Origin: a bacterium
GTDB taxonomy: Bacteria > Hinthialibacterota > Hinthialibacteria > Hinthialibacterales > Hinthialibacteraceae
Length of the DNA stretch: 28,564 nt
Assembly (NCBI GenBank): GCA_963663405.2
Contig: CAXXSM010000038.1
Coordinates: 1 to 28,564 of the forward strand
Direction: 5' to 3'
Below the pieces are notes generated by a model, which saw only the letters and a list, made by a program, of their open reading frames with translations, searched no databases and had not been told where the DNA came from. The translations under genes and the position numbers were made by a program. This document shows positions 1,078-17,560 of this stretch, in pieces; positions within the stretch are counted from its first letter, which is position 1, and each line of letters begins with the position of its first letter.

Positions 1078-2244
1078 TCAGGGGCTTCGATTCCGATTGA
1101 GGGTTTCAATGACAATCACGTTACAGCTTTTGCAACGCGGACATTTAGGCCATTCCGGCGCCGATTCTTGGCCGGTCCGATCGAATACTGCTTTGTCGTT
1201 GGTCTCTTTTGAAACGATGGAATTCTCAACCGATTCGGGAATAGAAACGCTCTCCGCCTTGGGGGCGAGGAGCAAACGGATTCGATTGCGTGTGTCCCGA
1301 TGACAGTGATGCCACAGCCCATAGTAGCGGACTTTATGGAAGCCGCGGGGGAGCACATGCATCACGAAGCGCCGCAGAAATTCTTCGCCCGGCAAGCGGA
1401 GAGTTCGCCAATGCTTCTCTTTGAAGGTCTTGTAGCGGAACGTCACGTGGGTAGCGTCCATTGCCAGAAGCCGGTGGTTGGAGATCGCGATGCGATAGAC
1501 ATAGCGCCCCAGGTAATTCAAGATGGCTTTCACGCCTTTGCCATACGGTTTGCAGAACGAGTTCCAGCCTCTATTCCAGACCTTGGTCTCGATGCCTTGG
1601 AAGATCTCCGGCGCCGCTTTTTCGAGCCGTTCTTTAAAGCGCCGGCGAACGAGTAAGCTGAGCGTTCCCACATGGAGAAGCCATTTCGGGTGGCGGAGTT
1701 CCATCCAAGAGTGGCCGTCCTCACTCACGGCGCCGGCGCTGACCAACAGATGGACATGTGGATGCAATTCCAGATCTCCCCGCCAAGTGTGCAGCACGGC
1801 CAGGATCGCCGGGGTCCCGCCAACGACTTGGGGATTGCGCATCAGATCCATGATACAGGAAGCAGCCGTCGTCATCAGCAACCCATAGAGAATCTTTTGA
1901 TGAGCCAAGAAAGCCGCCCGGATAGACTGCGGAACTGTTACGATTACATGAAAGTAACGGCAGCCAAGCATCTGGTCTTCCCGCTTCTCGATCCATTGCC
2001 GCATCGCCTGGGAATGACAGGACGGACAGGATCGATTGCCACACCCGTGATACACCCAGAAGTCTTCGCCGCAGTCCTGACAGTGATAACGATGCCCTCC
2101 CAGTTCCGCCGTATGACAGGCCATGATATCGTGCAGCGCTTTACGCTGGGAGGGCAAAAGGCGCTTCCCTTGCTGCCGGATATAGGCCGGGCCAAACCGG
2201 CGAACCACATCGCCGAGTTCGAGGTTCGATGAAGTGCAATTCAT
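1078..2244 (-). CDS. IS91-family rolling-circle (HUH/Y2) transposase
   Basis: N-terminal Zn-binding region (CQDC...GCGNRSCPSC), YFHVIVTVP, LHTW, HPHVH (HUH motif), YLGRY, FVMHVLPRGFHKVRYYG. Confidence 0.95.
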   Translation of the reverse strand: MNCTSSNLELGDVVRRFGPAYIRQQGKRLLPSQRKALHDIMACHTAELGGHRYHCQDCGEDFWVYHGCGNRSCPSCHSQAMRQWIEKREDQMLGCRYFHVIVTVPQSIRAAFLAHQKILYGLLMTTAASCIMDLMRNPQVVGGTPAILAVLHTWRGDLELHPHVHLLVSAGAVSEDGHSWMELRHPKWLLHVGTLSLLVRRRFKERLEKAAPEIFQGIETKVWNRGWNSFCKPYGKGVKAILNYLGRYVYRIAISNHRLLAMDATHVTFRYKTFKEKHWRTLRLPGEEFLRRFVMHVLPRGFHKVRYYGLWHHCHRDTRNRIRLLLAPKAESVSIPESVENSIVSKETNDKAVFDRTGQESAPEWPKCPRCKSCNVIVIETLNRNRSP

Positions 2245-2253
2245 GATTCCTCC

Positions 2254-3101
2254 TCACATCAGATCGGCGAACACGGCGTTGATCCGATCCTGAGCCTCGT
2301 GGCGAAGCGGCTCAGTCAAATGAGTGTAGATCTGTGTCGAACGAATACTGGAATGGCCGAGAAGAATCTGGACAACGCGCAGGCTTTCGCCGTTCTCCAG
2401 CAATCTGCTGGCAAACGAATGACGCATCGAATGCGGCTTCACATCGTCTGTCAGCCCGGTAGCGTTACAGGCCAAGCGAAACGCTTTGCCGAGTGTCGAT
2501 GAGGGAATGTGGTTGGAGCCTTGTTGGTTGGGGAATAGCCAGGTGGGATGGCGATGCATCAACCAGAGTTCACGCATCGGCTCCAACAAGGTGTCCGGGA
2601 GAGGAACGATTCGCTCTTTATCGCCCTTCCCAATAATCCGTAAACTCATTTGGTTGGAATCGATCTGCCGCACCGGAAGAGAGATGACTTCACTGGTCCG
2701 AAGGCCGCACGCATACATCAACGTTAGAGCCAACCGGTAGGGCGTTTTCCTGACGGCGGCCAGGAGGGCGCGAACTTGGGAATGGGTTAATGAATGCGGC
2801 AGGCGCTTTTGGCGAGGCTTACGAATCTTTTTTTTGCAAACAACGGCCACCCCAGATCCAGCGTGGTTTGATAAAGAAATTTCAGCGCGCTGTAGTGGAC
2901 CTGAAACGTTCCGAGAGCGACTTTCTTCACGTCTCGCAAATTCAGTAAATAGACCCGGACGAGTTCCTCGCTAATGCATTCTGGCGAGCAATCAAATTCT
3001 AGAGCGAATGAGGCGACGGCTCGGACGTATGCTTTTTGCGTGCCTTCGCTCAGTCCTGCTAACGTCATGTCTTCGATCATGCGTTTCCGTAATGATTTCA
3101 T
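2254..3101 (-). CDS. Tyrosine recombinase, split by a -1 frameshift at A8 (2828-2835)
   Basis: 2787..3101 encodes the N-terminal SAM-like domain (RKRMIEDMTLAGLSEGTQKAY). 2254..2850 encodes the catalytic domain: YACGLRTSE, GKGDKER, HSMRHSFA, LLGHSSIRSTQIY. Confidence 0.9.
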
Positions 3102-3418: not shown

Positions 3419-4150
3419 TTATATCTGCACTCTCTCCAACCGTTCTTTTCTCCGCTCCCAATCTGGCATGCATTTGGTCAAGAGTAAATAGAACTCACGA
3501 CTATGATTTGGAATTTTCAAATGGCATAGTTCATGAATGATAACGTAATCGATGCAATACAGTGGTGTTTTTATCAATTCTGAGTTGAGAATGATCTTTT
3601 TTTTTTTTGAAAAACTCCCCCAGCGTTTTTTCATTAGTCGTATTTGAATCTGAGGGTAATCTATGCCAAATCGTTTTACTTTTTCATAGCATTGGTCTAC
3701 ATGCTTTTGAATGAGCGGTTTTGCATGATCTTTGTACCATTGTTCGACTTGAGATTTGATGGCATTGTGATTCTCTTTATCTGGGAAACAAACCGTAAGG
3801 TATTTACCAATGAGTTTTACGCATTTCTCATTATTCTTGATTACTTTTAACCTGTATTGCCGTCCTAAATAGTGATGCGATTCGCCGGAAATGAATCTCC
3901 GTGGCGGTTGAAGCGGTTGGTATTTTTCAAAATTGTGTATTTGCTTCAGAATCCATTTGGATCGCTTTTCAACTCGTTTTTTTATCTCTTCTATATTTTT
4001 CCCTTGAGGGGCTTTTATAATGATTCGCTGATCAGGATGAACATCGATAGTAAATCGCTTTGAATTTGTAAATTTCAGTTCAAATTCAATTTTCTCTCCG
4101 CCATAGACAATGGAATGAAGATTTGGCTTATGAGTAACTTTCTCGACCAT
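3419..4150 (-). CDS. YgjP/DUF45-like (M48/SprT-type) HExxH zinc metallohydrolase
   Basis: MKKRWGS, IDYVIIHELCHL, NHSREFY. The start ATG overlaps the hsdR stop (TAATG). This family commonly follows hsdR. Confidence 0.9.
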   Translation of the reverse strand: MVEKVTHKPNLHSIVYGGEKIEFELKFTNSKRFTIDVHPDQRIIIKAPQGKNIEEIKKRVEKRSKWILKQIHNFEKYQPLQPPRRFISGESHHYLGRQYRLKVIKNNEKCVKLIGKYLTVCFPDKENHNAIKSQVEQWYKDHAKPLIQKHVDQCYEKVKRFGIDYPQIQIRLMKKRWGSFSKKKKIILNSELIKTPLYCIDYVIIHELCHLKIPNHSREFYLLLTKCMPDWERRKERLERVQI

Positions 4151-7100
4151 TATTTGCACCTGACTTTAGCGATATCGATGCATTGTTCCATGATTTCGTC
4201 GATCTCTTCAAAACTGAGATTGATATTTCTTTCTTCTTGTAGATCGAATAGGTAATCTTCAATTTTAGTTCGTATCTGATTTTGCACGTCTATATTGGTA
4301 TGCCAGTTTACGATTTTGTTTTTTTGGATAATTTCATCAATACCAATACTGGCATCTACTCCCATCGATACAAGAATATCCTCATTGTCTGCGTGTTCTT
4401 CAAGGACTTCTTGGAAAATCCCGTAAAAGGCTTGTGCGATTTCACGATTTCTTAATGAGTCAGGGATTTCTTCGTCAACATGATTCTGAACGGCTTTTTG
4501 AATTTCTCTTACTTTATTTAGGTATTCGAGATCAGAGAGCCGTTGTTCACGGAAAGCCCGAATCGCGTCCTCAATCAGTTTTGAGAATTTTCGATAAAAA
4601 GCTGGATCTTTTTCTTTCCATTCTTCAGAAAGCGTTTTCTTGGTACGATGAGCAATCGTATCCGCTTTGGAAGCGATAGAACGTTGCTTTTCTACTTCTT
4701 CTTTGAAAGCGTTCTCATCAAAAATATTGACTAACGGTGTCAGTGATTCGACTTCACCAGCGCCAACATGCGAGTCAAGCAGTTTTTTAATTTTCGGTTC
4801 ATACTCTTTAAAATCAATTTCATCCGCATAACGCCTGCGGACACTTGTCCTCAGGTTCATATAGAATTTTAAGTCTTTTTTGTATTGGTCTATCTTCTCT
4901 TGTGATGTACATTCAAGAAAATTGGCGGATGATAAAGCGAGATTGAGCGTTCTGGCGAAATCAGATAATCGGTCACAGAATTTATCCCGCAAGGCTTTAT
5001 CGGCAAGAAGCTGTTCATACTCTTCTTCATCGAGTTTATTTTTAATTCCTTTGAATATGTCCTTCAGGTCGGAGTATTTTTGTGGGAGTTTATTGGCGTG
5101 TTCAGTAATATCATCTAAAGCATTCAGAAGGTCGTCTTTCTCGTATTCAGACAGATTTCGGTATAAATCAAACGCTTCATCAAGTTTCCCCAATACGCCA
5201 TAATAATCAATGATGTATCCATAGTCCTTGCCTTCACTCAAGCGGTTTACACGTGCGATGGCTTGTAGAAGAGCATGTTCTTTCAAACTCTTGTAAACAT
5301 AGAGTACTGTGTTTCGCGGCGCATCGAATCCAACAAGTAATTTATCAACCACGATAATGATCTCAGGATCATCACCATGCTTAAATGAATTGATTAGTTG
5401 TTTGTTGTACTCTTTTTCTGTACCGTATTTATTCATCATCTTTTTCCAGAACTCAACAACCGGTTTTTTGTTGGTTTCATAAATATCGTCGTTACCTTCC
5501 CGGTCGTCAGGTCCAGAAATGAGTACTTCCGATGTCACCATTCCAAACTCATCAAAATACTGCTTGAATTTCAACGCGCTGAGTTTCGAATCGGCTACGA
5601 ATTGTGCTTTGAATAGTTTCTCTTCATTGTCGAAGAAATTTTTGAAGTGATATCCAACATCCCAGGCAATCGCTTTGATTTTTTGGCCGGCTTTGTTGAT
5701 CTGATCGGTTGTAGTGAATTTCTGTTTCAGATCGGCTTTTTGGTCTTTAGATAAGTTCGTTGTTACCTTGTCAAACCATTGATCGATAGCGTCTCTATCC
5801 ACGTATAACTGAACGTCCCGGCCCTCATACAAGAGTGGAACAACAGCCTTGTCCCTAACAGCCTGATCGATTGTGTAGGTATCGATTAAACCGCCGAATC
5901 TCTGAATGGTATTTTTCTGTTTCCTGATGACGGGAGTTCCTGTAAAACCGACAAAGCACGCATTAGGAAGAACTTTGCGCATTAACGCATGGATTTCGCC
6001 ATATTGTGAACGGTGGCTCTCATCGACCAATACAAAAATATTCTTATCCTCATTCTTGAAATCTTTCTTCTTGAGTGAGGCTTCAAATTTATCGATGACG
6101 GTCGTGATGATTCGTTCCTGCTGGCCGACGATTAATTCTAACAAATGATTCCCCGTTTTCGCTTGGATTAGGTCTTTACCACAATGTCGGAAAGTATTGT
6201 AAATTTGGTCGTCTAAATCTACTCGGTCCGTTACAAGAATGATCTTGTAATTATTAATATCCGGTTGCAGAGCAATCGATTTTGCAAGCATGACCATCGT
6301 AAGAGATTTACCGCTACCTTGTGTATGCCAGATTACACCGCCTTTTCGAGCGCCGTCTTGATCATACGTGGAGATTCGCTCAATGCTCTTATTGACGCAG
6401 AAATATTGCTGATAGCGTGCGATCTTTTTATCCCCTGCGTCGAACAAAATGTAGCGGAAGATAAGTTCGAGAAGCCTTTCTGGACGGCATAGGGAATAGA
6501 TCGCACGATCCTGTTCTGTGATTTCACGGCCACCGCCCGTTTCAATGGTGTCAAAATATTTCCATACATATTTAAATCGATCAGAGAAAAGTTGATCTTT
6601 CATTTCTATAGGTAATGGTTGATTAATCAGAGCATAGAGTTTTTTTTCTACGTTTTCATCTTCTTTCCATACGGACCAAAACTTTGCTGGGGTACCAGTC
6701 GTGGCATATTTAGCTTCGTTTTTGGATAGAGCGAGTAACAATTGAGAGTAGAGAAATAACTTGGGGATTTCATCTTCTTTTTGGTTGCGAATTTGCTGGG
6801 AGACAGCCTCATCAATAGAATTTTTAATATCGGGTCGTTTGCATTCGATCACAACCAATGGAATCCCGTTTACAAAAAGAACAATATCCGGGAGGCGGAT
6901 TTCATGGCTGCCGGTTCGTTCGACCGGGAATTCTTCTGTCACATGAAATACATTGTTTTCGGGATGTTCCCAATCGATATAATGAAGTGAGAAACTTTTC
7001 AGGTCTCCATAAATGGATTGTGGAAGGCTCTTACCCAGGCACAATAGGTCGTATACTTTTTCATTGGTTCTAACAAGTCCATCAAAGACAATGCTCTTGA

Positions 7101-7347
7101 GTGATTGAATCGCAGTTTGGATATTTCCTTCGGAAAACTTATGATCTTCTCCTTTATATTGAAACGTGTTCATATTGCGCAGTTGTGTTTCGAGGATACC
7201 GTCTAAAACAACATTGTTCAGTTTTCCGCCACGCTGTTTTTCTGCTTCAGTAGGAGAAAGATATACAAATCCCAAATTTTGCATTAATTGCAGAGCAGGG
7301 ATTTGAGAAATATGGTCTTCTTTGAAAGAGGGAGTATCAAGACTCAT
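4150..7347 (-). CDS. hsdR: Type I restriction endonuclease subunit R
   Basis: PDIVLFVNGIPLVVIECK nuclease motif; HTQGSGKS, DESH, GFTGTP and QAIARVNR helicase motifs; 1065 aa. Confidence 0.97.
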   Translation of the reverse strand: MSLDTPSFKEDHISQIPALQLMQNLGFVYLSPTEAEKQRGGKLNNVVLDGILETQLRNMNTFQYKGEDHKFSEGNIQTAIQSLKSIVFDGLVRTNEKVYDLLCLGKSLPQSIYGDLKSFSLHYIDWEHPENNVFHVTEEFPVERTGSHEIRLPDIVLFVNGIPLVVIECKRPDIKNSIDEAVSQQIRNQKEDEIPKLFLYSQLLLALSKNEAKYATTGTPAKFWSVWKEDENVEKKLYALINQPLPIEMKDQLFSDRFKYVWKYFDTIETGGGREITEQDRAIYSLCRPERLLELIFRYILFDAGDKKIARYQQYFCVNKSIERISTYDQDGARKGGVIWHTQGSGKSLTMVMLAKSIALQPDINNYKIILVTDRVDLDDQIYNTFRHCGKDLIQAKTGNHLLELIVGQQERIITTVIDKFEASLKKKDFKNEDKNIFVLVDESHRSQYGEIHALMRKVLPNACFVGFTGTPVIRKQKNTIQRFGGLIDTYTIDQAVRDKAVVPLLYEGRDVQLYVDRDAIDQWFDKVTTNLSKDQKADLKQKFTTTDQINKAGQKIKAIAWDVGYHFKNFFDNEEKLFKAQFVADSKLSALKFKQYFDEFGMVTSEVLISGPDDREGNDDIYETNKKPVVEFWKKMMNKYGTEKEYNKQLINSFKHGDDPEIIIVVDKLLVGFDAPRNTVLYVYKSLKEHALLQAIARVNRLSEGKDYGYIIDYYGVLGKLDEAFDLYRNLSEYEKDDLLNALDDITEHANKLPQKYSDLKDIFKGIKNKLDEEEYEQLLADKALRDKFCDRLSDFARTLNLALSSANFLECTSQEKIDQYKKDLKFYMNLRTSVRRRYADEIDFKEYEPKIKKLLDSHVGAGEVESLTPLVNIFDENAFKEEVEKQRSIASKADTIAHRTKKTLSEEWKEKDPAFYRKFSKLIEDAIRAFREQRLSDLEYLNKVREIQKAVQNHVDEEIPDSLRNREIAQAFYGIFQEVLEEHADNEDILVSMGVDASIGIDEIIQKNKIVNWHTNIDVQNQIRTKIEDYLFDLQEERNINLSFEEIDEIMEQCIDIAKVRCK

Positions 7348-7360
7348 GATTATTGCCTTT

Positions 7361-8521
7361 TCAGATTTTTACCCGCACTTTACCCGTAAGTAATTTTTGC
7401 ATTAAGCCTTTTTTTTGATAGTTCAATAATTCCAATTTTCTTGTCAAAATCTTAATTTCTAAATCAATTGCATTTAGTACACTTGCGACAAACTTTTGGT
7501 CATCAATTGTTGGTAGAAATAAAACTTGTTTTTTTAAAGTCTCTAAGGTTATTCCTTTAACTGTACTCCCTGATCCAATTCTCTCTAACTTGTTTGCATG
7601 AGTGTTAAACCAATATAATAAATATAACTTATCGAGATTTGCTTTAGGAAAAATCCCTTTTAAATCTTGGTTTATTGCGACATCACAATTAAATATGACT
7701 GCTTTACCTACAGCCATACGAGTAGATACAATAACAGTACCTTTTGGAATCAGATTAGCAGAACTATTATTTAAACCTTCTAAATTAATATGTTCTTCTG
7801 TATCAGAATAATCAAATCTATTCAGATCTTTTACTGTAGCCCAAGGTATTCTGCCTTCCCAATATTTGGTAAATTTTCTTGATGGTGTCCCTCCGCCTAT
7901 AATTTTTTCAATACAATCTTCAAGTCGCTTTTCTTTCTGATAAGGAAACTGCTTCTTTCCAGTCAACAATTGTTGCATAAGCCCTTTTTTAAATTTCTGT
8001 TTAGCTTCAATCAGGTGATTGGTTTGGTCGATGGCTTTATCCCATGCGGAGAGGATTTGGGAGATTTTTTTTTGTTCTTCAATTGAAACTTTTGTTACTT
8101 CAAAATTAGACAATGACTTTTTATCAATATTTGGAAAAGTAGATCCCGAAGTAAATTTTAGTATTCTCTGAGTACTATATACGAGAATATGTTCTATGAA
8201 AGAAGTTAAAAAACCATTTTTCCCACGTATTGCTGCTACACCTCTACCAATACAATAATTATCATCAGCTATATTTATTCTTCCAGTTGAACTCCCACGA
8301 ACACATAAAAGAATATCGCCTTTATTACAAATTTTTGTTGGTTTTGAAGTCCACTGTTTTTTGATAGGAAACCTATTTGTAAACTCAGTAGGACCATTGA
8401 TTAAAGGAATTCCGATTTTTTCTGAATTATAGCTATCACCACGAGGAGATTGTCCCATTTCTATGTGAGATATCTTCCCAATTTTTATCAATTCATTTTT
8501 ATTCTTAATTAATTTATCCAT
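7361..8521 (-). CDS. hsdS: Type I R-M specificity subunit S (two TRDs)
   Basis: GQSP and GGTPSR TRD starts; conserved helical spacers EEQKKI...KKGLMQQLLTGK and KKGLMQKLLTGKVRV. Markedly AT-rich. Confidence 0.96.
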   Translation of the reverse strand: MDKLIKNKNELIKIGKISHIEMGQSPRGDSYNSEKIGIPLINGPTEFTNRFPIKKQWTSKPTKICNKGDILLCVRGSSTGRINIADDNYCIGRGVAAIRGKNGFLTSFIEHILVYSTQRILKFTSGSTFPNIDKKSLSNFEVTKVSIEEQKKISQILSAWDKAIDQTNHLIEAKQKFKKGLMQQLLTGKKQFPYQKEKRLEDCIEKIIGGGTPSRKFTKYWEGRIPWATVKDLNRFDYSDTEEHINLEGLNNSSANLIPKGTVIVSTRMAVGKAVIFNCDVAINQDLKGIFPKANLDKLYLLYWFNTHANKLERIGSGSTVKGITLETLKKQVLFLPTIDDQKFVASVLNAIDLEIKILTRKLELLNYQKKGLMQKLLTGKVRVKI

Positions 8522-10016
8522 TGAATCCCAACTCCTTTAAATAACCAGCCATTGCTTTGCGCGTAACCGTCAGTTCGCTTTCGAGTTCGTCAATCTCTTT
8601 CTGGGTCGCTGCGATGTCGATCTCTTCTTCTTCCTCAAAGCTATCGACATAGCGAGGGATGTTGAGATTGAATTCGTTCTCATCGCGGATTTCTTCAAAA
8701 GTGGCACGATAGGCGTATTTCTCGACTGTTTTGAATTTCTTGTAGGTTGCAACGGTCTTGTTTATGTCTTCTTCGCGTAGTTTGTTCTGTGTCTTGCCCT
8801 GCTCAAATTCACGGCTTGCATCAATAAAGAACACGTCCTTGGTCTTCTTGCCTTTATTGAAAATCATGATCGCTGCCGGGATACCAGTTCCATAAAACAG
8901 ATTTGCAGGAAGCCCCACTACCGCTTCAAGAATATTCTCTTCCACGAATTTTTGTCTGATTTTCCCCTCTTGCCCCCCTCTGAACAAAACACCATGTGGA
9001 ACAATCACTCCAACACGGCCTTCCTCCACAAGCGCCGTTTCAACCATATGGAGAATAAATGCGTAATCTCCCTTGCTTTTGGGAGGTGTCCCACGCAAGA
9101 AGCGCTGAAACTTGTCACTTTCCGCGATGTCCGCTCCCCACTTATCAAGAGAGAAGGGAGGATTCGCTACAACGATATTGAACTTCATGAGCGAATCATC
9201 TTGGATCAATTTGGGGCTGGTAATCGTATTGCACCATTCGATCCGGGCACTATCCATGCTATGCAGAAACATATTCATTTTGCATAGCGCCCAAGTACTG
9301 CCGTTGCTTTCCTGTCCAAAGAGCGAAAAATCATTGTTGCCCACTTCATGCGCAACCTTGATAAGCAAAGAACCAGAACCACAGGCTGGATCGCAGATCG
9401 TATCCCCCGGTTTGGGATTGAGTAGTTTCGCTAAAAGAATAGAAACTTCCGGTGGTGTATAGAATTCACCACCTTTCTTACCGGCACCGCTGGCAAAACG
9501 GGCAATCAAGTATTCATAGACATCACCGATCACATCGCGGTTGCCGATTTTTGACGGGCGAAGATCGAGTTTTTCATTATTAAAATCATTGAGCAAAGCT
9601 TTTAGACGACGATTGCGTTCCTTAGTTTCGCCCAGGTTTGCTTCACTGTTAAAATCGATCATGCGAAATACGTTTTCCAATTTGGCCTTATTGGCGTCTT
9701 CAATCTTTTCCAAGGAGATGTTGAGTAATTCGCCGATATTGGCTTCCTCACGCTTTGCATATAGGTGATCAAAATCACACTCCTCAGGTAGAATAAATCG
9801 TTCACGGCTTAACGCTCTTTGGATGCGTTCTTGGTTACCTTTGTATTTCTTTTCATATTCCTCTTTTATATCCTTCACCAAATCGGATAAGTACTTAATA
9901 AATAGCATCACAAGGATATAATTTTTATATTCAGATGGATCGACCGCTCCACGGAACGTGTCGCATGCCTGCCAAACGATGTTGTTGATTTCTTGTTGAG
10001 TTACTTTATTGGTCAT
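8514..10016 (-). CDS. hsdM: Type I R-M N6-adenine methyltransferase subunit M
   Basis: GEFYTP, DPACGSGSLL, VANPPFS, PHGVLFRG, LNIPRYV. Confidence 0.97.
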   Translation of the reverse strand: MTNKVTQQEINNIVWQACDTFRGAVDPSEYKNYILVMLFIKYLSDLVKDIKEEYEKKYKGNQERIQRALSRERFILPEECDFDHLYAKREEANIGELLNISLEKIEDANKAKLENVFRMIDFNSEANLGETKERNRRLKALLNDFNNEKLDLRPSKIGNRDVIGDVYEYLIARFASGAGKKGGEFYTPPEVSILLAKLLNPKPGDTICDPACGSGSLLIKVAHEVGNNDFSLFGQESNGSTWALCKMNMFLHSMDSARIEWCNTITSPKLIQDDSLMKFNIVVANPPFSLDKWGADIAESDKFQRFLRGTPPKSKGDYAFILHMVETALVEEGRVGVIVPHGVLFRGGQEGKIRQKFVEENILEAVVGLPANLFYGTGIPAAIMIFNKGKKTKDVFFIDASREFEQGKTQNKLREEDINKTVATYKKFKTVEKYAYRATFEEIRDENEFNLNIPRYVDSFEEEEEIDIAATQKEIDELESELTVTRKAMAGYLKELGFNG

Positions 10017-10616
10017 TCCTGTTCTCCTTCAGAACGATTTTCTTTTTTGATTGCCTTCAAACTAACCGCTTCAATAAGCACACTTCGTTTTTCTAGAATT
10101 TGGTCCATCAAGCAGCGTTCTTTTTGATGGAGCCGATCCAATTCCACAATAGATCGCTGTGTTTTTAATGGAGGAATTTCTACTTTTAATTGCTCAAACG
10201 CTGACTTAGGAACCATTGGCATATGCGTACCTCGCCGAGCAAGGCTTGCTAGAAAATTCTGCGCAGGTTTTTGATTAATATACCAAGCAAAATATTCCGG
10301 GATAATCGTATTCTTGTCTACGCGAATGATAAAAAAAATAACTGGCCGCAATGGTTTCATGCAAAGGTGAAGTAATCGCATAAGCGAAATTCCGATGCCC
10401 ACGTGATAAAAATAAAACATCTCCTTGCTGCACGAGATATTTATCTGCTGTCTTATCAATCGTAACACGATCAAGGTTATCAAGATCAAGGCGGTCGTCA
10501 TCATCAAAGTTCTTGATTTGGATTACACTATGCGTTCCGTTCGGATCGGGCTGTATTTTTGAACGGAATTGGTACCCAATCTGTATCATTGCTAGATGCT
10601 TAACCTTTTTTTTCAT
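10013..10616 (-). CDS. Half-size HsdS-like protein (single TRD), frameshifted at the T8 tract 10331-10338
   Basis: Removing one T joins ...LVQQGDVLFLSRG...AASYFF to IIRVD...PEYFAWYINQ...EIPPLKTQRSIV (~200 aa). Its stop overlaps the hsdM start (ATGA). Confidence 0.8.
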
Positions 10617-10643
10617 CAAGAGATCTTTCTCAATAGAAGTAAG

Positions 10644-10676
10644 TAGATGGGGCTACCTCAGAGGCAACCCCACCTA
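10644..10676 (-). terminator. Intergenic stem-loop (possible terminator, attenuator or processing site)
   Basis: TAGGTGGGGTTGCCT-CTG-AGGTAGCCCCATCTA, a 15-bp stem whose three G.U pairs form only on the minus strand. The U-tail is weak. Confidence 0.5.
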
Positions 10677-10686
10677 GATTCATGAA

Positions 10687-10986
10687 TTATGGATTCGTCG
10701 AATAAGTCTTTTTGTAGGCGTAGACATATCGTGTAGAATAATCTCCACCGCCAGTTCCACCGTCGCACCCGAGAGAAAGAAAGTGCTTCTCTATTCGCCG
10801 CGCTTCGGTTTCTGAACCGGCATCTTTGTAAATCCATGCCCCGTTATGCTGATCCACGTTATGTTCGTTGAAAAGACGATCTTTGGGATCAGAAGCAATA
10901 CCTACGTACCAGGCGGAATACCCGCCACCATGTTGTGAAATATAATTATTGATGTCTTGAATTATTGAATTTGCTGGTAAAACCAC
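10687..10986 (-). CDS. Small GIY-YIG-like hypothetical protein
   Basis: WYVGIASDPKDRLFNEH and EARRIEKHF resemble the YIG/Arg/His/Glu elements of GIY-YIG nucleases. AGGAG RBS and GTG start. Confidence 0.6.
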   Translation of the reverse strand: MVLPANSIIQDINNYISQHGGGYSAWYVGIASDPKDRLFNEHNVDQHNGAWIYKDAGSETEARRIEKHFLSLGCDGGTGGGDYSTRYVYAYKKTYSTNP

Positions 10987-11054
10987 GATCTAAACTCCTA
11001 AGGTTTTTTTTTGTTGTTAACTCAAAGATGCATCTCAGCCAGCTCTGAGAACTT

Positions 11055-11255
11055 TTATATCGCTGGTCCCTCACCCTGGAGGAGTTGGGTATTCGACTTT
11101 CTTTTAAAGACTGAGTTGACAGGAGTAGATCGATATAATATGATATTATTAGAACTGTTTTCATCCGGCCAACTCGGCCTGATTGGAAACGTCCGGCCCT
11201 GCGCTGCAACGTAGGGCCTGTTTCTTTTACGGAGCAAAGCGTCCGTGTAAATCAA
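11055..11255 (-). CDS. Possible leader peptide (66 aa)
   Basis: Strong RBS AAGGAGGTG ahead of a TTG start, just downstream of the consensus promoter. No recognisable domain. Confidence 0.3.
   Translation of the reverse strand: MIYTDALLRKRNRPYVAAQGRTFPIRPSWPDENSSNNIILYRSTPVNSVFKRKSNTQLLQGEGPAI
11116..11144 (+). promoter_or_regulatory. Antisense sigma70 promoter
   Basis: TTGACA-N17-TATGAT. Confidence 0.65.
11151..11228 (+). ncRNA. Candidate ~80-nt antisense sRNA ending in an intrinsic terminator
   Basis: Follows the promoter above. Hairpin GGCCCTGCG-CTGCAA-CGTAGGGCC (11195-11218; its G.U pair forms only on +) followed by TGTTTCTTTT. Confidence 0.5.
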
Positions 11256-11313
11256 GTATTTTTCACCTCCTTTTAGAATCTTTTATTGATGTATATCCCA
11301 TACTTCAAAATAT

Positions 11314-11342
11314 ATTATACATCAAAATCCAATCTCTGTCAA
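11314..11342 (-). promoter_or_regulatory. Perfect-consensus sigma70 promoter of the R-M operon
   Basis: TTGACA-N17-TATAAT on the minus strand, flanked by the 9-bp inverted repeat ATACTTCAA (11300-11308) / TTGAAGTAT (11361-11369). Confidence 0.8.
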
Positions 11343-11436
11343 GAAATATTTTATAAAAAATTGAAGTATTACAAATACCTCTTTTTAATTTTTTTTTTGG
11401 ATTTATGTTCAATTATTCATCCATAAATCAAGTAAA

Positions 11437-13714
11437 CTAAAGTAGTTTTGCTCCTATTTCTTCAGCGGCACTCTCTGTTTCAGAAACAACCTCACGTAGA
11501 AACTGGTTGCGATCAGGTGATGGTTGTTACATCTGGAATAGGCGCGGCAGGTTCATAAATATCATCGCCAATGATCCTTGCTCGAACAAAAGTTGAGCCT
11601 GTTCCACGCTTGTCATAAGCATCCTGCCACTCATGAGATCTTTCCCGCCATACACGCCGCGTAGAAAGATCTAAAAGACGCTTTCCAATATTATCCGCAA
11701 GCGCATCATATTTACTAATCTTCTCCTCTTCTGTTGCGTCAGGGCCTTCCCACCGGAGCGGATTTTTGGATAAAAACGTATATCCGTTCAATGAGTTCTT
11801 TACGTAAATCTGCAACAGGTTTTAATGTGTCGTATTCATCCGCCATACCAGTGGCAAGCCTTCGAGTTATAGTTGCCTTTACTCGAGTCCAGTGTTCTTT
11901 CGTGAAACCAGGTTTGAAATCGAGGCCAAGCCTTGGCCGCCATGCTTCGTGGTAGGCTTCTGCTGCGCTCTGAATAGCAAATCCCAAATTCATTCGGTCA
12001 TAAACAGGCCGCGCTTTGGCAGGCTCCGGTCTTTCAATAACAAGGTCAATCGCTTCAAGTAATTTTATAAGTTGCTTGATTGTGCGTTTTCCTACAGAAT
12101 TTTTCTTCAGATAATTTTTTTTGAATGTTTTCGAGGAAAAAGCGTGCATTTTCAAGGCGATCACGGAGAGCACGTTCTGCATATGGACCAAGGTCTTCAC
12201 CAAAAGATGCGAGAACATTTTCAGCTGAAGCCAATACGTGATGGACTTTTGATTTAAGATCCGGTAAATTATCGCCCTCTATCTCATCGAAATGGGTAAA
12301 CGCTAGAATCAATTTACGAGCATTTCCGGTCGATACTATTTCTCGCATTGCAGCAAGAGAAGCCGCTTGCATGGGTTGCGCAGCATTATCAACAAGAATT
12401 ACAGCATCAACTTTTTCTATTTTCCGACTTACTGTTGTGGAAACGGACGAAGATGACTTTGGAGTATGTCCTAAACCTTCACTATCTAAGAGAACCAATT
12501 TAGGAACATGATTCCCATCCCAACTAGGAGAAAATGGCCCTGCAACACGCACTCCGTTAACAAGAGGTGTAAGCAAACTACCAAATAAAGGAGCATAATT
12601 ACTCGAAAATCGCGAAATCGCTGTAAGGAATTCTTCGCGTTGCTCGATCGGCCACTCTCCGTTCCATGTTAATGGCCATCCCTGCTTTGTTTTCTTTAGA
12701 TTTCCCTGGGGCAACAAATCGAAACGTTTTTCGATTTCATCCATTAGAGCGTCGGCGATTTGATGAAATTCCTCATCGTCACGTAACATGTTGTCGAGTT
12801 CTTCTTCGAATAATTCTTCAAGAACACGTTCGTCATCTTCTTTGCTAGCATCCAATTCTTCATATAGGCGGTCACTTAATCGAATAGCAATATCCCGTAA
12901 TCGATCAACAGTATCGACGAGTAATTCATTTGTAGTGGCTATATCAATTTCTCCGAAATCATCAATCAAGTCATTATTTAAGTTCTCTTCTTCATCTTCT
13001 TCATCAAAGTCGCTTTTACCCATCTGAGGACCATTTCCAAGTATGTAATTAAATCGAAAACGTTGATTGACGTGACTAAGGAGCCGCCTTAAAACCTTTT
13101 CATCATCATTCTTTTCATTAGATGCCACTAGAACCGCAGCCGAAATACATTCATTTAGATATTCCCTTACTTCATCGCAAGAAACAAAAGTAACGACTGC
13201 CCGCCATGGCCCTTCGTCGATTACTATTTCGGTATCATGAATTGTCGTTTTAGCAGTAGATGTTGACGGGAAGCGTTCTTTTTCAGGATCAGTACCAATA
13301 ATTTGTCGAACTAGTGTTGTTTTCCCCGCTCCAGTAGTTCCGAGGAAAAGAACTTTCCTATAACCATCAGCTTCTGAGGGAGGGAGTGGAATCACTTCTT
13401 CTCGAAGATCATTGAAATCTACTGATTCTGGAATCATTTTGTGGTAAAAAAATATCAACGATTCGGGGATCAAATCGCCGCTCTGCTTCAGCCCTTGCAG
13501 ATGTATCATGGTATTTTTGATCGGCAAGAATCTCATTGAGTTGATTACATAACTGAGTAGCTTCTGATTCGTCACGAGTTCCCAATCCTCTCCGTACTCT
13601 TACTCCAACCTTGCCTGTTGCCTCATCACGTATAACTGGATGTCTAAAAATAATGGCATATCCTGATCGCCCCTGGGATTGACTTAAGCTTGCTTTATAC
13701 GTGCGCTTCATCAT
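11437..13714 (-). CDS. Large (~755 aa) dynamin-like/TRAFAC P-loop GTPase with a putative N-terminal DNA-binding domain; four apparent single-base insertions
   Basis: G1 GTTGAGKTT, G2 FPSTSTAKTT, G3 LLDSEGLG, G4 FTHFD. ORFs 13409..13714, 12055..13575, 11739..12218, 11513..11815 and a tail ending SPDRNQFLREVV...GAKLL* join if one base is removed near 13450, 12102, 11765 and 11524. Confidence 0.75.
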
Positions 13715-13720
13715 ATATCA

Positions 13721-13810
13721 CCTCGTTGTTCCATTGTTGTACCATTGGATATAATATCAAGCTTCTTCCATGTGTCAATACTCTTTTGGAACAACTTAGG
13801 TACAACGAGG
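13721..13810. promoter_or_regulatory. Four GGWACAAC boxes arranged as an inverted pair of direct repeats around a promoter
   Basis: 13721-13744 and 13787-13810 form a 19/24 inverted repeat. They enclose a minus-strand TTGACA-N16-TATTAT promoter (13778-13751) with a TGn extension. Confidence 0.6.
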
Positions 13811-14083: not shown

Positions 14084-14584
14084 TTGATGCCGCAAGAATT
14101 CTTACCCCACTTTGCCGATATCGAGGAAGGCTACATAACCGATTTACTCTCGTACCGGAAGCAGGATGGTTCGGTCTATTATTTTCATGGCGCCTTTCCT
14201 ATTTTCACGCATCCAGAAACCGATCAAAAGAGTTTCCGCTTGATTACCAGTCAGTTTGTCGTGAACGGGCAATGCACACAGATGGAGATCGTTCGAGCGT
14301 TTGGCGTGAGCGCGATCAGCGTGAAGCGGTGGGTCAAGAAATATCGGGAAGGCGGAACGGGGGCGTTTTTTGAAACGCCTCGAACGCGAGGCGCGCATGT
14401 CTTGACGAAAGACGTCCTCCAACAAGCGCAAGAGTTTTTGAACGAGGGGCTTTCTCGAGCGGAAATCGCCGACCGGCTGGGCCTTAAGCGGAATACGTTG
14501 AATAAAGCGATCCAAGCCGGACGCCTGGTGGAGCCGCTAAAAAAAACGATACCGAAGGCCGCCCGAAAAGCGAGCGAAGCGTAG
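14084..14584 (+). CDS. IS OrfA, helix-turn-helix protein
   Basis: EIVRAFGVSAISVKRWVKKYREGG and LSRAEIADRLGLKRNTLNK HTH motifs. The A8 run at 14539-14546 allows a -1 shift into the transposase frame. Confidence 0.8.
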   Translation: MMPQEFLPHFADIEEGYITDLLSYRKQDGSVYYFHGAFPIFTHPETDQKSFRLITSQFVVNGQCTQMEIVRAFGVSAISVKRWVKKYREGGTGAFFETPRTRGAHVLTKDVLQQAQEFLNEGLSRAEIADRLGLKRNTLNKAIQAGRLVEPLKKTIPKAARKASEA

Positions 14585-14601
14585 AAGACAGCCAAGCGGC
14601 G

Positions 14602-16318
14602 ATGGGGATGGGCTGCACGCGGGTGGTGGAGCGGGTCTGCGCGGCGACCGGGCAGTTGGAAGAAGCCCCGACTCGTTTCGAGATGGAATTGGATGTGGCG
14701 CAAGGCGGCGTGTTATGGGCAATGCCCGCGTTACTCGCCAACGGGCTGCTGAAGAATGTCTCGAAGAACTTTTCTCTGCCCAAAGGATTTTACAGTTGCG
14801 TCCACATTTTTATTGTGTTGGCCTTCATGGCGTTGACGCGGATCAAAACGCCGGAACAGTTGCGCTATCATCCCGCGGGGGAAGGGGGCAAGTTACTGGG
14901 CTTAGATCGAATTCCCGAAGTGCGGACGTTGCGGGAAAAAATCAAAATTCTCGCTCAACCGGACCGGATCAAAGAATGGGGGGACGAATTATCCCGGGAG
15001 TGGATGAAGGCGGATCTGGACGCGGCGGGCGTTTTATATGTCGATGGTCATGTCCGCGTCTATCACGGTTCGCAAACAAAACTGCCCCGCCGTTACGTCG
15101 CGCGTCAGCGATTATGTTTGCGTGGACTTACCGACTATTGGGTGAACGACCAGGAAGGCCGCCCCTTTTTTGTGGTGAGCACTCCATTCACCACCGGCTT
15201 GTTGGATATGCTCAAACGGGACATTGTTCCCCAGTTGCTCCAAGACGTTCCCCGTCAACCCACAGCCGAAAACCTCGAATCCAATCCTTATTTCCACCGG
15301 TTCATCCTGGTGTTCGACCGGGAAGGCTATAGCCCGGAGTTCTTCGCCCAGATGTGGGATTCGCGGATCGCCTGTCAAACGTACCGCAAGTTTCAGGGGG
15401 AGGATTGGCCAGTCACAGAATTCGAAACGGTGAATGTGCGTCTGCCCGGCGGACAGGATTCGTCGATGCGTTTGGCCGAGAGAGGCGTCTTTCTGGGAGG
15501 GAAAATCTGGGTGCGGGAGATTCGCAAGTTGGGAGAGACGGGGCATCAAACCGCTGTGATCAGTACGGATTATACATCAGACGCAAGTCAAATAGCGGCC
15601 CATATGTTCGCGCGTTGGTGTCAGGAAAACTTCTTCCGCTACATGATGGAACATTATCATTTAGATGGACTTATCGGGTATGAAACAGTCTTGCCGGATG
15701 AGACGATGAAGGTGGTGAATCCGGCCTACCGGAAATTGGAAAGTCAGATCAAAAGCCTGGCGGGGAAGAAGGCCCGAAAGCAAGCGGAGTTCGGCGCTCT
15801 TGTCCTGCAGGAACCCTCCAATTCGAAAGAGATCGAACGCTATGAAATACAGAAAGGCGCGCTCTTTGAAGAGATCGATCAGATAGAAAATCAACTTGAG
15901 GAGTACAAGCGGCTCCGGAAGCAAACGAAAAAACATATAGCGTTTGGGGATTTGCCAGAGGAAGCAAAATTTCAACAATTGGCGCCGGCGAAGAAAACAA
16001 TTCATGGATACGATTCGAATGATTGCGTATCGGGCGGAAACGGCGATGGTATCTGTGTTGAGGGAAGTGTTAAGCCGGGGGGATGATGCGCGTTCATTGG
16101 CGCGGGAAATCATGACCACTGAAGCGGACCTGATTCCCGATGAAGAAAAAGAGACTCTCACGATTCGGCTCCATCACTTGACCAACCGCATTTCCGATCA
16201 AGCTGCCCGTCATTTGGCCGCTCAATTGAATGAAACCGAAACCACTTATCCTGGCACGAATCTACGTCTCGTTTACCAATTGGTGTCAGATCAATATCCC
16301 CCAGATCAGGAGGCCTGA
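14602..16318 (+). CDS. IS transposase (DDE), with an extra-base frameshift near 15995
   Basis: LYVDGHVRVY, VFDREGY, RWCQENFFRY catalytic-type motifs. Continues in 15944..16318 (FMDTIRMIAYRAET). Confidence 0.8.
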
Positions 16319-16398: not shown

Positions 16399-17011
16399 CC
16401 TCCGGCAGAGCCGGAGGCTTGATTTTGTGAACCGCTCAAAGCGGTTTGAATTACGAGCCACCTAAAGGTGGCTATGCATTATCGAACAAACTCAATTGTT
16501 CTAGTCGTTTATCCTCTTGCTCTTGATTTCTGATATATTCTCTGATTATGGCTTCATCTTTTCCCACTGTTGATACCAAATATCCGCGGGCCCAAAAGTG
16601 CTGCCCCACGAAATTCCTTCTCTTTCCTAGATAATTTCTCGCTATATGAATCGCACTTTTCCCTTTTATAAAACCTATCACTTGCGCAACTGAATCTTTT
16701 GGCGGTATCGAGATCAACATATGAACATGATCCACTATCAGATGCCCTTCTTCTATTTCACATTCTTTCTGACTCGCCAAATCTCGAAAGACTTCTCCTA
16801 GGTATTTCCTCAATTCTTTGTATAAGGCTTTTCTTCTATATTTCGGAATGAATACCACATGATATTTGCAATCCCATCTTGTATGCGTTAAACTCTTATA
16901 CGTCATTTCTTCTCCTTCCTGTGTAACTTTGAGCGGTTCACATGAAGGAGATTTTTTTTTTTCGATTCCTGGAATTGTCAAACACTGGGAGTCCCCCGGC
17001 AGAGCCGGGGG
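16399..17011 (-). mobile_element. IS200/IS605-family element (tnpA only)
   Basis: Subterminal hairpins CCTCCGGC-AGA-GCCGGAGG (16399-16417) and CCCCCGGC-AGA-GCCGGGGG (16993-17011). Inner 16-bp inverted repeat at 16426-16441 / 16927-16942. Confidence 0.9.
16472..16906 (-). CDS. tnpA: IS200/IS605 Y1 transposase
   Basis: CKYHVVFIPKYRRK, DHVHMLISIPP (HUH), IKGKSA, FWARGY, IREYIRNQ. GGAG RBS before the ATG at 16906. Confidence 0.95.
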   Translation of the reverse strand: MTYKSLTHTRWDCKYHVVFIPKYRRKALYKELRKYLGEVFRDLASQKECEIEEGHLIVDHVHMLISIPPKDSVAQVIGFIKGKSAIHIARNYLGKRRNFVGQHFWARGYLVSTVGKDEAIIREYIRNQEQEDKRLEQLSLFDNA

Positions 17012-17248: not shown

Positions 17249-17389
17249 TCAAATCAAATTAATCTCTTCATCCTGTGCTTGAAGATGAGCATAGATCATC
17301 GTTATTTTCGGATCACTATGTCCTAGCCATTGTTGAATCTTGTATAAACTCACACCGGCTTTGGCTAATTAGGAGGCAAAAGTGTGTCT
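17249..17389 (-). pseudogene. Tyrosine recombinase C-terminal remnant A
   Basis: RHTFAS*LAKAGVSLYKIQQWLGHSDPKITMIYAHL... with an internal stop. Confidence 0.85.
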
Positions 17390-17418
17390 CCTATGCCGCT
17401 CCGGCATAGAAGACACAC
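17382..17418. repeat. 37-bp near-perfect palindrome joining the two integrase remnants
   Basis: GTGTGTCT-C-CTATGCCG-CTC-CGGCATAG-A-AGACACAC. Confidence 0.85.
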
Positions 17419-17560
17419 CTACGCTTCCCATTTGGTCTTGAAGGGAGTTCCACTCTACACAGTCAGCGCGTTACTCGGCCATAAATCCACCGAAATGACA
17501 AAACGCTACGCGCATCTCGCCCCGCAACATCTTCATGACGCCATTTCGGTTTTGCCGTAA
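17411..17560 (+). pseudogene. Tyrosine recombinase C-terminal remnant B
   Basis: RHTYASHLVLKGVPLYTVSALLGHKSTEMTKRYAHLAPQHLHDAISVLP*. Confidence 0.85.

Follow-up and report, generated by a model that had tools for sequence, protein, structure and literature searches.

What does a dynamin-like GTPase with an apparently integrase-related N-terminal domain do next to a type I restriction-modification (R-M) operon, and does it belong to that system, to a mobile element or to a defense mechanism of its own? The question is raised by a gene in contig CAXXSM010000038.1 (assembly GCA_963663405.2) of a bacterium of the phylum Hinthialibacterota, of which the 28,564-nucleotide stretch that was analyzed (positions 1 to 28,564) is hereafter called the window. 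The gene starts with an ATG at position 13714 and runs on the minus strand to a stop codon near 11437, so that its ~2.28 kb correspond to a product of ~757 amino acids. The original prediction, made from the DNA letters, placed an uncharacterized GTPase that senses DNA at 11437..13714 on the minus strand, in the same orientation as the hsd genes, and saw in it either a defense factor or an R-M partner; position and strand are confirmed. The reading preferred here is that the protein represents a family of stand-alone, candidate single-gene GTPases directed against phages or other mobile genetic elements by the mechanism outlined below, and we put the probability of this reading at about 0.5. 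Defense or competition between elements as the role of the family, taken without the mechanism, appears slightly more probable than the opposite.

The window gene can be read by comparison with its closest intact homologue, P0002 (locus L002, positions 9910-12180, 756 amino acids), which was used as the reference throughout. The nucleotide alignment of the two genes shows 86% identity, and five frame pieces of the window gene, with no stop codon within any of them, jointly align to 752 of the 756 P0002 codons, with 82-90% amino acid identity depending on the piece. The pieces, and the GTPase motifs in the translation of the second one, are as follows:

13453..13714, minus strand: frame piece 1, residues 1-87; basic N-terminal domain of three strands and a helix (core 13660-13559), then the start of the linker helices; 82% amino acid identity to P0002 residues 1-87
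12105..13451, minus strand: frame piece 2, residues 89-536; dynamin-like G domain with the acidic helical insert (~13014-12712)
11768..12103, minus strand: frame piece 3, residues 538-647; first part of the C-terminal helical domain
11526..11766, minus strand: frame piece 4, residues 649-727; C-terminal helical domain; 90% amino acid identity
11437..11524 (codons 11524-11440), minus strand: frame piece 5, residues 729-756 and the stop codon
13341-13315, minus strand: G1 motif, GTTGAGKTT
13257-13243, minus strand: G2 motif, TAKTT
12486-12466, minus strand: G3 motif, DSEGLGH
12297-12286, minus strand: G4 motif, THFD

The complete G1-G4 set noticed in the original prediction (13341-12286) falls on columns that are invariant or nearly so in an alignment of 76 family sequences (G125, K131, T157, D410, G413, T473 and D476 in P0002), with K131, T157, D410 and G413 strictly invariant and T473 and D476 conserved in at least 90% of the sequences. 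The family form of G3 is D-x-E-G-L-G-H, and that of G4 is the variant F-T-H-F-D. The AlphaFold2 model of P0002 built from this alignment has a pLDDT (predicted local distance difference test) value of 91.4 and a pTM (predicted template modeling) score of 0.90, with only the acidic loop 241-249 below a pLDDT of 50, and consists of the following predicted parts:

P0002 residues 9-64: three strands and a helix
P0002 residues to 116 (helices 49-116): linker helices
P0002 residues 119-530: G domain
P0002 residues ~226-336 (~110 amino acids): acidic insert interrupting the G domain between G2 and G3; a disordered acidic stretch or loop followed by three long helices
P0002 residues 539-751 (~220 amino acids): helical C-terminal domain

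The long acidic helical insert is thus as described in the original prediction, and it is conserved; its net charge is -28 in P0002 (residues 226-336) and, across the family, has a median of -21 with extremes of -36 and -6. A Foldseek search of the Protein Data Bank (PDB) with the full model finds SynDLP at the top (3.8e-6), followed by Campylobacter DLP1/2, IniA, BDLP, MxB and mitofusin, and in the BFVD structure search the best matches are giant-virus dynamins. The alignment with BDLP (2j69) covers 394 residues over model positions 112-753, reaching into the C-terminal helices, at a root mean square deviation (rmsd) of 6.6 Å; IniA, the alignment of which likewise reaches into these helices, is matched over 340 residues at 8.8 Å. 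The helices at 49-116 and 539-751, one set on each side of the G domain, may correspond to the helical neck or stalk bundle of dynamins. Searched by sequence, the same database gave only uS13 (E 0.08) for the single sequence and, for the profile, weak G-domain matches to Der (2.5e-6) and EHD4 (7e-4). By the model, the family belongs to the dynamin superfamily, where it is closest to the mitofusin/BDLP branch, and its G domain has an enlarged fold closest to dynamin-family structures. A prediction of the complex of two G domains (residues 100-540) with GTP scored 0.04 (mark 0.42), which is no evidence either way.

This kinship suggests one alternative at once: the protein might be a membrane-remodeling bacterial dynamin like DynA, LeoA or IniA that seals or reshapes the cytoplasmic membrane under phage or envelope stress, with an N-terminal domain that has nothing to do with DNA. 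The closest structures (Fzo1/mitofusin, Campylobacter DLP1/2, SynDLP, IniA and BDLP) are all from membrane-active proteins and, to our knowledge, DynA of Bacillus subtilis and Eleos (LeoA/LeoBC) are the known dynamin-type phage defenses. However, the family lacks any transmembrane-like segment or hydrophobic paddle by which a membrane could be bound, the maximum 19-residue Kyte-Doolittle mean being 0.94 in P0002, with a family median of 1.2 and a family maximum of 1.83, and its distinctive parts, a basic integrase-like domain and an acidic insert, suggest a nucleic acid or protein target more than a lipid one. In PADLOC v2.0.0, the matches are at the level of the P-loop only (mad8, 2e-4; LeoA, 0.029), with nothing at 1e-8 for the four full-length members P0002, P0010, P0123 and P0205, and there is no LeoBC-like partner or second gene for a dynamin-like protein (DLP) nearby. 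A membrane-remodeling role seems quite unlikely. The family shares with Eleos and DynA a dynamin-superfamily GTPase in an anti-phage setting but, by these comparisons, it is not a member of Eleos/LeoA. Bacterial DLPs and mitofusins at large (Nostoc BDLP, Campylobacter DLP1/2, SynDLP, IniA, Fzo1/MFN1) share the G1-G4 motifs and, in the case of BDLP and IniA, the extent of the structural alignment, whereas the present family is only marginally similar to them in sequence, has the ~110-amino-acid insert between G2 and G3 and the integrase-like N-terminal domain, replaces the usual N/TKxD of G4 with THFD, and is encoded by a solo gene in defense and mobile-element contexts.

The N-terminal domain is the second unusual part of the protein. 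Its ~65 residues, with a median net charge of +5 and conserved Arg and His residues, are predicted to form three strands and a helix, and the same strands and helices appear, at a pLDDT of 84, when the domain is folded alone using 34 locus-derived sequences. Among the Pfam matches of these N-termini, all of them weak, the most common is DUF6538 (PF20172), found in 7 of the 34 sequences at E<=1, with 0.0083 as the lowest E-value; for the window piece, the score of 14.2 bits (E 0.037) is below the gathering score of 27. When the 34 N-termini were compared using hhalign with 11 DUF6538 sequences, picked by hand from 17 matches in 9 of 300 sampled gammaproteobacterial genomes, the result was a probability of 78% and an E-value of 1.8e-5 over 56 columns with 27% identity, which is moderate and not decisive. 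The two groups share the pattern strand-FR-x-P...GK...[SG]L-x-T-x-D-x-x-EA-x-x-L and, in all three DUF6538 proteins examined, the domain is N-terminal, with Phage_integrase in one of the proteins and Phage_int_SAM_5 in one. The N-terminal domain of the GTPases is probably a remote homologue of DUF6538, which forms the N-terminus of a class of tyrosine integrases, although it falls below the Pfam cut-off and precedes a GTPase where DUF6538 precedes a recombinase. The original prediction had likened this region to the arm-type DNA-binding domains of integrases; the profile match to DUF6538 speaks for this comparison, and the predicted fold is a three-stranded sheet with a helix, but the structural match to the lambda Int arm domain is weak. 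It extends over 51 residues with an rmsd of 2.2 Å and 20% identity, not above background; the Int-DNA complex 2wcc comes at rank 35 in the structure search, beside AP2 DNA-binding domains, and Foldseek with the isolated domain yields nothing below E 0.3. One integrase N-terminus of the Arm-DNA-bind_3 type shows no significant match to the family N-terminus or to DUF6538, and the full-text literature searched contains no mention of ‘DUF6538'.

The family is large. Among 8000 scored candidates, 4004 proteins match the 506-amino-acid central piece of the window protein at E<=0.001, and nearly all of the best 120 matches are 756-760 amino acids long, with 65-87% identity; for relatives at 66-68% identity, the source records give Acidobacteria, Woeseiaceae and Candidatus Poriferisocius. 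In a library in which ~15 billion proteins are clustered at 50% identity and each cluster is represented by a single sequence, P0002 matches 1283 representatives at E<=1e-3, 908 at 1e-10 and 451 at 1e-30; members with as little as ~30% identity still have a length of ~750 amino acids. Of the 150 representatives listed, ~25, or roughly one in six, are ~640-700 amino acids long and lack the N-terminal domain, their alignments starting near residue 100. No fused forms longer than 1323 amino acids were found. In one metagenomic protein, P0218 (934 amino acids, encoded on a 3.3-kb contig), a Swt1-like HEPN domain (E 8e-28) takes the place of the N-terminal domain.

Despite its size, the family appears to be unnamed in PADLOC, NCBIfam and PHROGs and is borderline in Pfam, in line with its original description as uncharacterized: beyond the P-loop matches in PADLOC, nothing came near the cut-offs in NCBIfam and no match was found in PHROGs, whereas Pfam Dynamin_N gives 27.8 bits for the 506-amino-acid piece, against a cut-off of 27, and 25.1, 18.5, 19.2 and 21.3 bits for the intact homologues P0002, P0010, P0114 and P0047, all below it. 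The source names of the matches, where given, are ‘hypothetical protein', ‘Rab family GTPase' and ‘EcfA2'. No description of the family was found in the full texts searched; supplementary candidate lists of defense-discovery papers, or the DefenseFinder models, could contain it. The nearest named neighbors in a protein-atlas search with P0002 by language-model features were PF10139 clusters (SrfC/Virul_Fac), at 0.93 in 15 of 30 matches; this kinship was rejected because six PF10139 proteins compared with the family profile gave an hhalign probability of only 0.6% (E 0.096), confined to the P-loop region. The atlas search with the C-terminal region (530-756) had a best score of 0.82, which is the noise level.

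What, then, are the genes among which the family is found? The context set consists of 37 loci, that is, the window and 36 related loci, of which 17 are non-viral (the window, 2 from genomes and 14 from metagenomes) and 20 come from IMG/VR; the short or truncated L035, L038, L044 and L049 and the P-loop-only matches L050 and L051 were left out. The neighboring open reading frames (ORFs) within 6 kb, reduced to 255 representatives at 85% identity, were scanned with Pfam, and the metagenome part, with a few additional neighbors, was also scanned with PADLOC. Known or candidate defense genes lie within 6 kb of the GTPase gene in 11 of the 17 non-viral loci, the window included, a concentration in defense islands that supports the original prediction:

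window and L036: type I R-M
L003: BREX BrxA/B/C/PglX and a CAP12-type TIR protein
L037: AbiLi/AbiLii and CapP
L046: HmaA/HmaB
L041: type IIG enzyme (E 3.6e-301)
L039: PDC-M05 MNT/HEPN
L040: ZorD/DpdE-like helicase and PDC-M38A
L033: methyltransferase, HNH, RmrA-like protein and McrB-like AAA_5 protein
L047: SNc+LTD
L048: DrmMI-type fragment

Mobile elements are the other recurrent setting. Their hallmarks are present in 6 of the 17 non-viral loci, and in at least 11 of the 20 IMG/VR loci the GTPase gene lies, on the opposite strand, between the tail-tube/tape-measure and head genes of lambda-like prophages, with RES-Xre toxin-antitoxin pairs adjoining it in L018 and L019. Further IMG/VR loci carry large serine recombinases, an integrase, a PstI-type R-M system or a large methylase, and serine recombinases, an integrase, a conjugative type IV secretion system (T4SS) or relaxases are found in other loci of the family. 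The GTPase gene is present in 11 of 72,556 plasmids, where it is annotated as a ‘hypothetical protein' in 10 cases and has no feature under the match in one; five of the 11 matches are from Rhodococcus, all without the N-terminal domain, and the small ORF located 5' of such a plasmid copy was considered as a split-off N-terminal domain and found not to be one. Bradyrhizobium and Azospirillum are further sources of plasmid copies, and other copies come from Micromonospora and Streptomyces. Four of the 35 genomes of the window's phylum have the gene, as do at least 2 of 400 sampled gammaproteobacterial species, one of which was a sampling center chosen for carrying it, with two candidates scored per genome. 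No tRNA genes flank the GTPase gene in five loci, no meaningful repeats were found around the gene, and in L002 the guanine-plus-cytosine (GC) content drops no more than slightly at the gene. All-against-all BLAST of the neighbors reveals no recurrent neighbor family outside one prophage lineage, and therefore the gene would work alone or with host factors. To judge from these distributions, the family is rare, spread across phyla, horizontally mobile and without a conserved partner gene. As an observation on the prophages themselves, the site between the tail-tube and head genes appears to be a cargo hot spot in lambda-like prophages (L015, L018, L019, L023 and L029 of IMG/VR).

Such contexts could also mean that the gene serves the mobile elements in a purely selfish manner, through control of integration or excision by the integrase-like domain, through DNA partition or maintenance, or through the exclusion of competitors only. 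The carriers include prophages, elements with serine recombinases, a conjugative T4SS locus and plasmids, the N-terminal domain is held in common with integrases, and the window copy itself lies between transposases and integrase fragments. However, the location of the gene is not tied to that of any integrase or recombinase, and it lacks a conserved neighbor; in the prophages it is found on the opposite strand in the structural module beside toxin-antitoxin cargo, which is the usual place of accessory genes and not that of integration or partition modules; many loci are plain defense islands without a recognizable element within 6 kb (L003, L036, L041); and competitor exclusion would in practice amount to the same phenotype as defense. 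A purely selfish function is, in our estimate, unlikely. Because the gene is carried on prophages, on plasmids and in defense islands, the family is a good candidate for an anti-phage or anti-plasmid factor or, equivalently, for a weapon of resident elements against incoming ones.

The most conspicuous neighbor in the window is the type I R-M operon (4150..10016, minus strand), which is co-oriented with the GTPase gene and separated from it by ~1.4 kb that comprise a 451-bp intergenic region, a 99-amino-acid ORF with a weak GIY-YIG match (E 0.003) and a decayed half-length hsdS, the ORFs of which match PADLOC Specificity_I (8.7e-8 and 1.2e-10):

10016..8514, minus strand: hsdM, intact
8521..7361, minus strand: hsdS, intact
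7347..4150, minus strand: hsdR, intact
10013-10619 and 10687-10986, minus strand: half-length hsdS-like gene, split by a frameshift into two overlapping ORFs, and the adjoining 99-amino-acid ORF
13751..13778, minus strand: promoter-like site TTGACA-16 nt-TATTAT with TG, 37 bp 5' of the GTPase ATG; 11/12 consensus positions
11314..11342, minus strand: perfect sigma-70 consensus TTGACA-17 nt-TATAAT, just 3' of the GTPase stop codon; 12/12

That the GTPase is a dedicated accessory subunit or regulator of this system would fit its location, on the same strand and 5' of hsdMSR, and the repetition of the order GTPase-hsdM-hsdS-hsdR in L036, where the GTPase gene is 112 bp 5' of hsdM; in L013, too, an HsdR-like gene lies ~4 kb 5' of the GTPase gene. 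However, type I genes occur near the GTPase in only 3 of the 37 loci, and the R-M systems of the window and L036 are distant from each other (28% identity for HsdM and 23% for HsdR), whereas the GTPase of L036 is 58% identical to P0002, against 82-90% for the window pieces. Moreover, in the window, the ~1.4 kb between the GTPase gene and hsdM are occupied by another ORF, the decayed half-hsdS and the perfect promoter consensus, and the hsd genes are intact whereas the GTPase gene is broken. Given the rarity of the association and the unrelated R-M lineages, the juxtaposition reflects co-residence in an island and not a functional operon, so that the second role offered in the original prediction, that of an R-M partner, does not hold up and is very improbable. 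The predicted sigma-70 consensus at 11314..11342 suggests that the genes 3' of the GTPase form a separate transcription unit. Promoter-like sites are not above background across the region (7 found vs 10.8 expected in shuffles), and hence the one at 13751..13778 serves as a pointer only. Apart from these genes, the end of hsdR is overlapped by a YgjP-like metallopeptidase gene (E 1.4e-60; window 3419-4159, minus strand), apparently the fourth member of the R-M operon.

How might a protein of this architecture, independently of the adjacent R-M system, act on its own? In the preferred reading of a single-gene anti-phage or anti-element GTPase, the N-terminal domain would bind nucleic acid, most probably foreign DNA that is entering the cell or being replicated; this contact would lift an autoinhibition of the GTPase, in which the basic domain may be masked by the acidic insert; and GTP-dependent pairing of the G domains, together with assembly of the helical domains, would coat or constrain the target. 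The logic would be Mx-like or McrB-like, without a nuclease. For this coating or constraining mechanism specifically, our expectation is low, and we regard it as doubtful. In its most explicit version, the protein would be a single-protein immune system and a bacterial counterpart of Mx, in which the integrase-derived domain recognizes the DNA of an invading phage or plasmid or an intermediate of DNA and protein (for example, a complex formed in integration or replication), the DNA-mimicking acidic insert exerts restraint, and GTP-driven assembly blocks replication, integration or packaging with no nuclease or membrane step; this version is speculative and, as a whole, unlikely to be correct.

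The comparison with McrB and with Mx and GBP is one of functional analogy, the common features being a target-recognition module fused to an oligomerizing GTPase and an antiviral role. McrB is an AAA+ protein that requires the McrC nuclease, and Mx and GBP have no DNA-binding domain; the present family differs from McrBC in that no nuclease partner is found among its recurrent neighbors. The DO-GTPases, which are likewise TRAFAC-class GTPases of predicted conflict systems, are described as having a conserved GAP1 partner, variable effectors, zinc ribbons and, often, paralogous pairs (Kaur et al. 2020, PMC7159879). The present family does not fit this description, as none of these features and no conserved neighbor was seen for it, GAP1 itself not having been searched for by profile. 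The TRAFAC GTPases involved in immunity that are named in a recent preprint are Mx/dynamin-like, GIMAP, septin, AP- and DO-GTPases (Li, Burroughs and Aravind 2026), which fits the view that the present family is not one of those already named. The family is best described as a variant within the dynamin-type immune GTPases, with a putative function in defense.

Several observations weigh against a defense function or, at least, against its proposed form. The case for defense comes from the gene neighborhoods alone, and no defense gene is found within 6 kb in 6 of the 17 non-viral loci (L002, L032, L034, L042, L043 and L045). Among these, L002, the locus of the closest homologue, is located among sugar-metabolism genes, L034 is the conjugative T4SS locus, and L042, L043 and L045 are contigs of at most 5.3 kb. 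The IMG/VR loci are biased toward prophages by construction, and none of 50,697 cultured-phage records carries the gene. No nuclease, toxin or pore effector is recognizable in the family, and the C-terminal domain has few conserved polar residues. The N-terminal domain is dispensable, being absent from the ~25 of 150 listed representatives and from the five Rhodococcus plasmid matches. The HEPN fusion is a singleton, with no second HEPN-fused member among the 120 best relatives of P0218, and because it stands alone on a 3.3-kb contig, it may be either a true fusion or a merged gene call. Finally, the window copy, as assembled, has a disrupted frame, and another genome (G019) of the window's taxonomic family has a copy with two internal stops, so that the gene appears to be dispensable in this lineage.

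The frameshifts of the window copy, together with one in-frame difference, are the following:

13446..13452 (~13452), minus strand: frameshift 1, coding-strand T7 against T6 in the intact homologue; +1
12100..12104 (~12104), minus strand: frameshift 2, extra A within an A run; +1 relative to L002
11763..11767 (~11767), minus strand: frameshift 3, A5 against A4 in the homologue; +1
11524..11525 (~11525), minus strand: frameshift 4, AA against A in the homologue; +1
~11874/11868, minus strand: in-frame +3 difference from L002, inside frame piece 3

The ratio of nonsynonymous to synonymous substitution rates (dN/dS) between the window gene and L002 is 0.12 (752 codons, dS 0.5), and this value, together with the absence of in-frame stops in the pieces, implies that nearly all of the divergence arose under purifying selection. 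Errors of assembly or consensus, or a minority allele, could be considered as the source of the frameshifts, in which case the organism would carry an intact, functional gene. In addition to the five stop-free pieces, the intact GTPase motifs and the low dN/dS, this explanation draws on the only public sequencing run that contains the stretch (X1, with 0.86 of the sampled words). Three Logan contigs of this run, with a word depth of ~2-2.6, cover 11525-11766, 11874-12103 and 12101-13800 without any difference from the window, and their ends coincide with three of the four frameshift sites (11525, 11766 and 12101/12103) and with the in-frame indel (11874), a pattern that suggests disagreement of the reads at those bases. 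Against this explanation, the remaining site, the T7 run at 13452, is spanned without a difference by the contig 12101-13800, although X1, probably the source sample of the window assembly, is not independent evidence. Two other runs, X2 and X3, gave two 150-nt pieces and nothing, respectively, and no RNA run is listed for the stretch. A general homopolymer error process is unlikely because the hsdR, hsdS and hsdM genes and a 569-amino-acid ORF in the window together contain 65 A/T runs of at least five with no frameshift, compared with 11 such runs in the GTPase gene, three of the shifts being within them. Furthermore, other mobile genes in the window are split (a transposase, an integrase and the half-hsdS), and the related copy in G019 (C85:35457-37469, locus L007), which matches P0002 residues 88-755 with 43% identity, is decayed by one internal TGA and one internal TAA. 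Assembly error or a minority allele is a serious contender, if somewhat short of an even chance. Either the window copy was inactivated very recently or the differences are, in part, consensus errors in a heterogeneous region of low coverage; the copy is probably inactive or mis-assembled, which makes the finding a modest one for this particular genome.

On the side away from the R-M operon, to judge by the ORFs and fragments recognized there, the GTPase gene adjoins the remains of several mobile elements. A Transposase_29 gene with a helix-turn-helix front part is split into three ORFs (window 14084-16318, plus strand) and is followed by an IS200-type Y1 transposase (16472-16981, minus strand) and a 58-amino-acid C-terminal fragment of a tyrosine integrase (17384-17560, plus strand). 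At the opposite end (window 1078-3101, minus strand), an IS91-family Y2 transposase is located beside a tyrosine recombinase, the SAM-like N-terminal and catalytic parts of which are in two overlapping ORFs. The composition is strongly mosaic between 18600 and 26000: a block of ORFs (156, 182 and 569 amino acids) without a Pfam match lies at ~20.5-23.5 kb, where the GC content is 25-32%, and several long ORFs overlap in different frames at 23.5-25.5 kb, where it is 54-59%. Near the window end, an ORF at 27270-27827 (plus strand) contains a secretin domain (E 8.5e-17).

Whatever the fate of the window copy, it leads to a concrete, large and conserved cross-phylum family that four libraries leave unnamed (PADLOC, NCBIfam and PHROGs, with Pfam borderline). 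In animals, dynamin-like GTPases such as Mx and GBP are central antiviral effectors; among bacterial dynamin-like GTPases, those known to us in defense, DynA and Eleos, are membrane-acting. The present family combines, in one protein, a motor of the dynamin type with a putative DNA-binding domain that resembles that of integrases, and has no membrane anchor, partner or nuclease. If protective, it would be a mechanistically different kind of single-gene immunity and, if this is true, the soluble protein of ~760 amino acids would be a tractable model of how dynamin-type assembly restricts nucleic-acid parasites.

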